From assembly GCF_016026235.1 (NCBI RefSeq), contig NZ_CP065613.1: DNA of 64,000 nucleotides; one strand, written 5' to 3'. The first letter of the stretch is position 1. Every line of letters begins with the position of its first letter. Of the stretch, positions 51,907 to 52,034 are shown in pieces. Under the pieces are notes generated by a model. The model was given only the letters and a program-made list of their open reading frames with translations, did not search any database and was not told the origin of the DNA. This DNA is from Escherichia coli. Its GTDB lineage: Bacteria > Pseudomonadota > Gammaproteobacteria > Enterobacterales > Enterobacteriaceae. Made by a program: the position numbers and the translations under genes.

Positions 51907-52034
51907 GATTTTCGCAAATTAACCGTTGATGTTTTACCTACCCTGCGAGTTAATTCCGAGCAGGCCTGAAGATTTTCGCAAATTAACCGTTGATGTTTTA
52001 CCTACCCTGCGAGTTAATTCCGAGCAGGCCTGAA
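51907..52034. repeat. Perfect tandem duplication, 2 x 64 bp, overlapping the first 11 nt of the autotransporter ORF
   Basis: Units 51907-51970 and 51971-52034 are identical (GATTTTCGCAAATTAACCGTTGATGTTTTACCTACCCTGCGAGTTAATTCCGAGCAGGCCTGAA). Confidence 0.9.

Follow-up and report, generated by a model that had tools for sequence, protein, structure and literature searches.

A perfect tandem duplication of 64 nt is found in the Escherichia coli DNA analysed here, a stretch of 64,000 nt from contig NZ_CP065613.1 (assembly GCF_016026235.1; hereafter the window), within a minus-strand gene that by its sequence is the AIDA-I-type autotransporter gene of the ECSE_1600 family, known in K-12 as yneO (ydeK/ydeU, b1509/b1510). 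The duplication is very likely genuine and specific to one lineage, probably arose by misalignment, and shifted the reading frame in the region encoding the extended signal peptide (ESPR), as one lesion in a pseudogene that is broken at several places. This is ordinary gene decay and no regulatory device; both the autotransporter family and the kind of lesion, a frameshifting tandem duplication, are already known.

At 51907-52034 Tandem Repeats Finder reports a repeat of period 64 with 2.0 copies, 100% matches, 0 indels and a score of 256, and direct string comparison showed that the two 64-mers are identical and stand head to tail with nothing in between, just as had been noted earlier from the sequence alone (hereafter the original prediction). 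The identity at period 64 covers exactly 128 nt, neither flank prolongs the repeat, and a perfect 64-nt repeat cannot have originated by chance. It is the sole substantial perfect tandem repeat within the window. Read in gene orientation, with the native start codon at 52080 (see below), the two copies are the following.

51971-52034, minus strand: first copy of the 64-nt unit, gene nt 47-110, in the native frame from ATG 52080

51907-51970, minus strand: second copy of the unit, i.e., the extra 64 nt, off-frame from ATG 52080 and in the native frame relative to the remainder of the gene

The gene was assigned both by sequence and by position. The NCBIfam model NF011422 ("ECSE_1600 family autotransporter", 1806 positions, cut-off 2335 bits) is matched by three fragments, namely the N-terminal fragment after repair by removal of one repeat copy (model positions 1-699, 1536.8 bits), the open reading frame (ORF) 48185-49939 (positions 701-1279, 1297.7 bits) and the ORF 45161-46675 (positions 1303-1806, 1179.3 bits). 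Singly the fragments score below the cut-off and summed they exceed it, which places the gene in the family by sequence, and its DNA is 97.6-97.7% identical to the gene of strain SE11. The gene order hipA/hipB, autotransporter gene, lsrK, lsrR is the same in the window as in O157:H7, K-12, BS-01 and SE11, so the position is also that of the family. The intact frame is lost, as three lesions disrupt the window copy; it is a pseudogene allele of the ECSE_1600 family and no functional member.

45161-52080, minus strand: whole ECSE_1600-family (yneO-type) pseudogene from native ATG to native stop, including the 64-bp duplication, a 17-bp deletion and an insertion sequence (IS), delimited by the NF011422 fragments, the alignment to SE11 and synteny

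52078-52080, minus strand: native ATG start codon, which maps to the annotated start of the coding sequence in K-12, BS-01 and SE11

The gene product would be a putative adhesin of type Va, AIDA-I-like, with an ESPR signal peptide, a repeat-rich passenger and a C-terminal 12-strand beta-barrel. Translation from ATG 52080 begins with MNRIYRVIWNCTLQVFQACSELTRRVGK..., and the ORF that starts there matches the Pfam family ESPR (PF13018; 58.9 bits, cut-off 25, E = 6.8e-16), the extended signal peptide of type V secretion systems. The T5SS/PEP-CTERM repeat TIGR04393 is found in 8 stretches of the autotransporter, the autotransporter barrel TIGR01414 is matched with 409 bits, and the C-terminal fragment has Pfam matches to Pertactin, AC_1 and Autotransporter. 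The K-12 gene has accordingly been named "AIDA-I family autotransporter" (PMC10782963).

The native ATG sits 46 nt upstream of the repeat, and both copies are intragenic and lie in the region encoding the ESPR signal peptide. The original prediction had instead placed the repeat across the 5' end of the gene, with the second unit immediately upstream, and this has to be corrected. When the intact SE11 gene (5,421 nt, 1806 aa, SE11 locus positions 43008-48428) is taken as the reference, the window copy departs from it in length at exactly three places, with 64 nt gained at nt 47, 17 nt lost at nt 2093 and 1,452 nt gained at nt 3833. The 64 nt are inserted after gene nt 46 and duplicate nt 47-110, i.e., codons 16-37. 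Because 64 is not divisible by three the reading frame shifts after codon 37, and translation from ATG 52080 ends after 48 codons with a product made up of 40 native residues followed by LGINSQGR. An exact look-up of this aberrant 48-aa product returned no record, and it is probably too short for gene calling. Removal of one copy in silico gives an open frame of 709 codons that runs up to the stop brought by the 17-bp deletion and accounts for the NF011422 match at positions 1-699.

51934-52080, minus strand: 48-aa ORF from the native ATG, from the ORF list

51934-51936, minus strand: premature TAA resulting from the frameshift, stop codon checked, product of 48 aa

49887-51917, minus strand: mechanical 676-aa ORF from a TTG, the N-terminal passenger remainder, ending at the stop of the 17-bp deletion

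Read in the frame of the downstream remainder, the TTG at 51917 is the first start-type codon past a stop, and that stop is located inside the upstream copy; the TTG ORF and the closure of its upstream frame within the second unit, as originally described, are both found (49887-51917, 676 aa). This ORF is a mechanical leftover of the frameshift and no new start. The accompanying proposal that start and promoter spacing were displaced holds in that the native start is disconnected from the body of the gene, but not for the promoter, as the 530 nt of intergenic DNA ahead of ATG 52080, which must by necessity bear the promoter, are untouched. A simple scan of 51800-52700 for sigma-70 promoters and terminators gave no match and was uninformative.

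Two further lesions, on which the original prediction was silent, were found by alignment to SE11.

49924-49925, minus strand: junction of the 17-bp deletion, the second frameshift (gene nt 2093-2109), from alignment to SE11, K-12, O157, BS-01 and EC22

46748-48196, plus strand: IS110-family (ISEc20-like) insertion of about 1.45 kb at gene nt ~3833, from alignment and NF033542

46975-48171, plus strand: ORF of the IS110-family transposase, matching NCBIfam NF033542 ("IS110 family RNA-guided transposase") with 238 bits

The IS is inserted in a G8 run of the autotransporter gene, and its transposase gene separates the NF011422 fragments 48185-49939 and 45161-46675. As the 17-bp deletion and the IS also inactivate the gene, the duplication is without functional consequence today. 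The gene is a multiply disrupted pseudogene with no present function, and the duplication is one of its three independent inactivating lesions. Public annotation has divided it into two proteins, STL95467.1 (51878-49887, 663 aa) and STL95463.1 (49912-48185, 575 aa), both called "lipoprotein"; these are mis-annotated parts of a single disrupted gene. The IS has counterparts elsewhere. In EC22 an annotated ISEc20 is located at the same nucleotide, and SMN152SH1, SMN197SH3 and 2014C-3011 match the whole of an 8-kb query with the IS included. The flanking alleles of these four are only ~97.6-97.8% identical to the window, which suggests either independent site-specific insertion or transfer by recombination.

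Comparison with the same locus in other E. coli genomes, which the original prediction had pointed to, gave a uniform picture. Of 5,426 complete E. coli genomes, 4,107 had a match to a 601-nt query over the site, and in 4,068 of these most of the query length was covered; all matches listed spanned 537 nt, i.e., 601 minus 64, which corresponds to one copy. A 56-nt query covering the duplication junction was found in none of the 5,426 genomes, and the junction written in IUPAC codes at the positions of known single-nucleotide polymorphisms had no match among the GTDB species representatives or the JGI metagenome contigs. One copy was present in 16/16 comparison loci, and O157 likewise carries a single copy of the unit. 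An identical LsrK is encoded in 41,407 blocks and is too common to serve as a lineage marker; the locus was single-copy in all ten of those fetched. Judged from these sequences the single copy is ancestral and the event is lineage-specific, with the two-copy allele confined to one lineage.

That lineage was sought through the pseudogene fragments specific to it, which were looked up with alternative start codons. The matching public proteins were STL95467.1 and STL95463.1, each on six contigs, of which two places were returned. Both have two exact copies of the unit together with the junction: GCA_900449985.1 (4.56-Mb contig) is 100% identical to the window over 11,992 nt, and GCA_001907545.1 (50.7-kb contig) is 100% identical over 8,909 nt. 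The perfect identity of the copies says little about the age of the duplication, as 128 nt gain substitutions very slowly.

Slippage or template switching is the most likely route of duplication. Tandem duplications made by slipped misalignment between short direct repeats are RecA-independent rearrangements. If the unit is divided into R1, its initial 10 nt, and X, its other 54 nt, and R2 denotes the 10 nt that follow it, a nascent strand misaligned between R1 and R2 during replication would produce the arrangement R1-X-R1-X-R2. The imperfect homology between the start of the unit, TTCAGGCCTG, and the sequence after it, CTCTGGACTG, which are equal at 7/10 positions, probably assisted such misalignment.

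51897-51906, minus strand: 10 nt just past the repeat on the gene strand (CTCTGGACTG), candidate misalignment site, with a 7/10 match to the unit start

The repeat finder prolonged the repeat to 51897 at 95% identity. For randomly chosen positions in this sequence, the probability of a match this good at either endpoint is P = 0.0014 when the spacing is 64 nt and P = 0.012 when it may take any value between 20 and 200 nt. The window duplication resembles other slipped-misalignment duplications in its abutting head-to-tail copies, which have no intervening or foreign sequence, and perhaps in the similar 10-mers exactly one unit apart; it differs from them in that the homology is imperfect (7/10) and stops short of the junction, and in that no hairpin is predicted. 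Slippage promoted by a hairpin was considered and rejected, as the z-scores for DNA folding of the unit were 0.16 and -0.16 and no inverted repeat other than one of 7 nt was seen. Also rejected was a target-site duplication made by a mobile element, since the copies abut directly and every IS target duplication is far shorter than 64 nt. Once formed, the two-copy allele may have been fixed by drift, by relaxed selection or by selection against a surface adhesin.

Several points weigh against this account. The junction has no exact microhomology, the period-64 identity ending at 128 nt, and a simple slippage model requires a terminal mismatch. The duplication is seen at the level of assemblies, not in reads, and the two assemblies that share it may be independent isolates or one strain sequenced twice. 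With regard to the order of lesions, the hypothetical 709-aa product of a single-copy gene carrying the 17-bp deletion had no record; in a query across the deletion junction two-piece matches masked any exact match.

The same gene decays recurrently by slippage-type lesions across lineages. According to the SE11 genome paper (PMC2608844), SE11 and HS have an intact ECSE_1600, MG1655, E24377A and O157 Sakai a disrupted one, and B2 strains lack the gene; the K-12 copy has likewise been described as a pseudogene (PMC2608844; PMC10782963). K-12 yneO shares with the window copy the position between hipBA and lsrK, the ESPR leader, the passenger with T5SS repeats and the C-terminal beta-barrel, but its lesion is one additional base in a G-run at nt 3954 in place of the +64, -17 and IS of the window. 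SE11 ECSE_1600, unlike the window pseudogene, is intact with 1806 aa. Among complete genomes the allele nearest by sequence (~98.9%) is that of O157:H7/O55:H7, which is annotated "frameshifted; internal stop". As in the window, this allele is inactivated by a perfect tandem duplication, 8-bp AATCGGCG x2 at nt ~3983 (O157:H7 493/89); it measures 8 nt and lies in the passenger or linker region, whereas the window duplication measures 64 nt and lies in the signal peptide. BS-01 carries a 14-bp deletion in the same gene, EC22 and others have ISEc20 at the same G-run, and EC2641 has IS903B.

The window comes from an E. coli lineage that is rich in IS and undergoing decay. Among complete genomes FDAARGOS_943 (NZ_CP065615.1) is the nearest; it is 99.9% identical over 19.5 kb, has the identical IS2 insertion and is 99.99% identical over window positions 32449-39442, which makes it a close relative. 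At positions 8651-10210 of its comparison locus a hipA fragment is fused to a truncated lsrK, and hipB and the entire autotransporter gene are deleted; it also has an IS1-associated deletion in a ydeT-type usher. The IS2 in question lies in the fimbrial gene ydeQ at 36355-37687 of the window (IS2 orfB at 36770-37675, plus strand). At ~15166 the window lacks ~7.4 kb present in SE11, with loss of ddpC'BA, ddpX, dosP and the greater part of dosC; ddpD' there runs directly into the end of dosC, and the junction has no IS. Between the fimbrial operon and hipA, ~60 nt at 43099-43162 replace ~1 kb of SE11 (locus positions 40013-41011), which holds part of a fimA-like gene and a helix-turn-helix pseudogene. 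In lsrA (plus strand; ORFs 55484-56452 and 56377-57021), the gene for the ATPase of the autoinducer-2 (AI-2) importer, a 2-bp "GA" tandem duplication at 56335-56336 causes a frameshift (CCTGAGACG in the window vs CCTGACG in FDAARGOS_943). Judged from this frameshift, the window strain probably has a defective lsr uptake system.

The loss may conceivably have been adaptive, with the duplication as the initial, selected knockout of the surface adhesin in an IS-rich lineage adapting to its host and the other lesions following later. This idea is compatible with the duplication as described above and would add selection to it. The gene has been inactivated repeatedly and independently in many lineages (in part PMC2608844), the closest complete genome has deleted it entirely, and its neighbours in the window decay too, by the 2-bp frameshift in lsrA, the IS2 in ydeQ and the 7.4-kb ddp-dos deletion. 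However, relaxed selection predicts recurrent loss equally well, no record fixes the order of the lesions, and intact copies of 1806 aa are common in other strains. Adaptive loss is for these reasons rather unlikely. A bolder form, in which the duplication is the primary selected "off" mutation, in the manner of decay in Shigella or enteroinvasive E. coli (EIEC), and the locus is a hotspot of slippage-type duplications and indels that silence the gene time and again across E. coli, is distinctly unlikely; if it were true, the pattern could be used for studying selection against autotransporter adhesins.

Far less probable is an assembly artefact, which had been offered earlier as one explanation of the perfect copy. 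Contig ends overlapping by 64 nt could, for example, have been joined untrimmed while the true genome is single-copy. Such an origin would agree with the perfect identity of the copies, with a junction without microhomology, and with the absence of the allele from the complete E. coli genomes, the GTDB representatives and the JGI metagenomes. It is nevertheless strongly disfavoured, because GCA_900449985.1 and GCA_001907545.1, separate assemblies of very different contig structure, carry the same two-copy allele with identical flanks; an irreproducible join is not what they display. The UGFA/STL accessions presumably stem from the NCTC 3000 long-read project. In addition, a 64-nt repeat is shorter than an ordinary read and is normally resolved, and the window has no other such repeat.

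Expression from the TTG at 51917, with a displaced start and promoter and a Sec-type leader (MRKSSGLTTKFSRLTLGVLLALSGSVSGA) without the ESPR extension, is similarly hard to credit. The ORF does exist, its N-terminus resembles an ordinary signal peptide when judged by eye, and automatic annotation called the 663-aa "lipoprotein" STL95467.1 here. Against this, no Shine-Dalgarno-like sequence precedes the TTG (upstream GTAAAACATCAACGGTTAAT) and the promoter region upstream of ATG 52080 is unaltered. The product would moreover be no autotransporter, as the 17-bp deletion ends the ORF after 676 codons and the IS cuts it off from the beta-barrel.

Phase variation, in which gain and loss of a 64-nt copy in the leader-peptide region would toggle the adhesin ON and OFF, is just as improbable. 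In Neisseria opa, CTCTT repeats in the region encoding the leader peptide set the frame and thereby give phase variation, and perfect tandem repeats can be lost through recombination or slippage. The window repeat resembles opa in lying within the signal-peptide coding region of a surface-protein gene whose frame is set by copy number, its unit length is not divisible by three, and precise loss of one copy would restore the frame. Yet it is one long, complex duplication of 64 nt and not a multi-copy tract of short repeats, and no variation in copy number is seen between genomes, which have one copy outside the lineage and two in both lineage assemblies. Nor is there an otherwise intact gene to switch: unlike opa, the window gene is made unrecoverable by its downstream lesions, as reversion would leave the 17-bp deletion and the IS in place and re-open the frame only to codon 709.

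The lineage-specific frameshifting duplication thus stands as an extra lesion of small biological weight in a gene that many E. coli, K-12 and O157 among them, are already known to carry as a pseudogene. For annotation it means that the locus should be described as one pseudogene from ATG 52080, rather than by a TTG-initiated "lipoprotein" ORF, and the 64-bp junction is a specific marker for the lineage. For the family it is a modest data point on the recurrent and mechanistically diverse decay of the yneO/ECSE_1600 adhesin gene.
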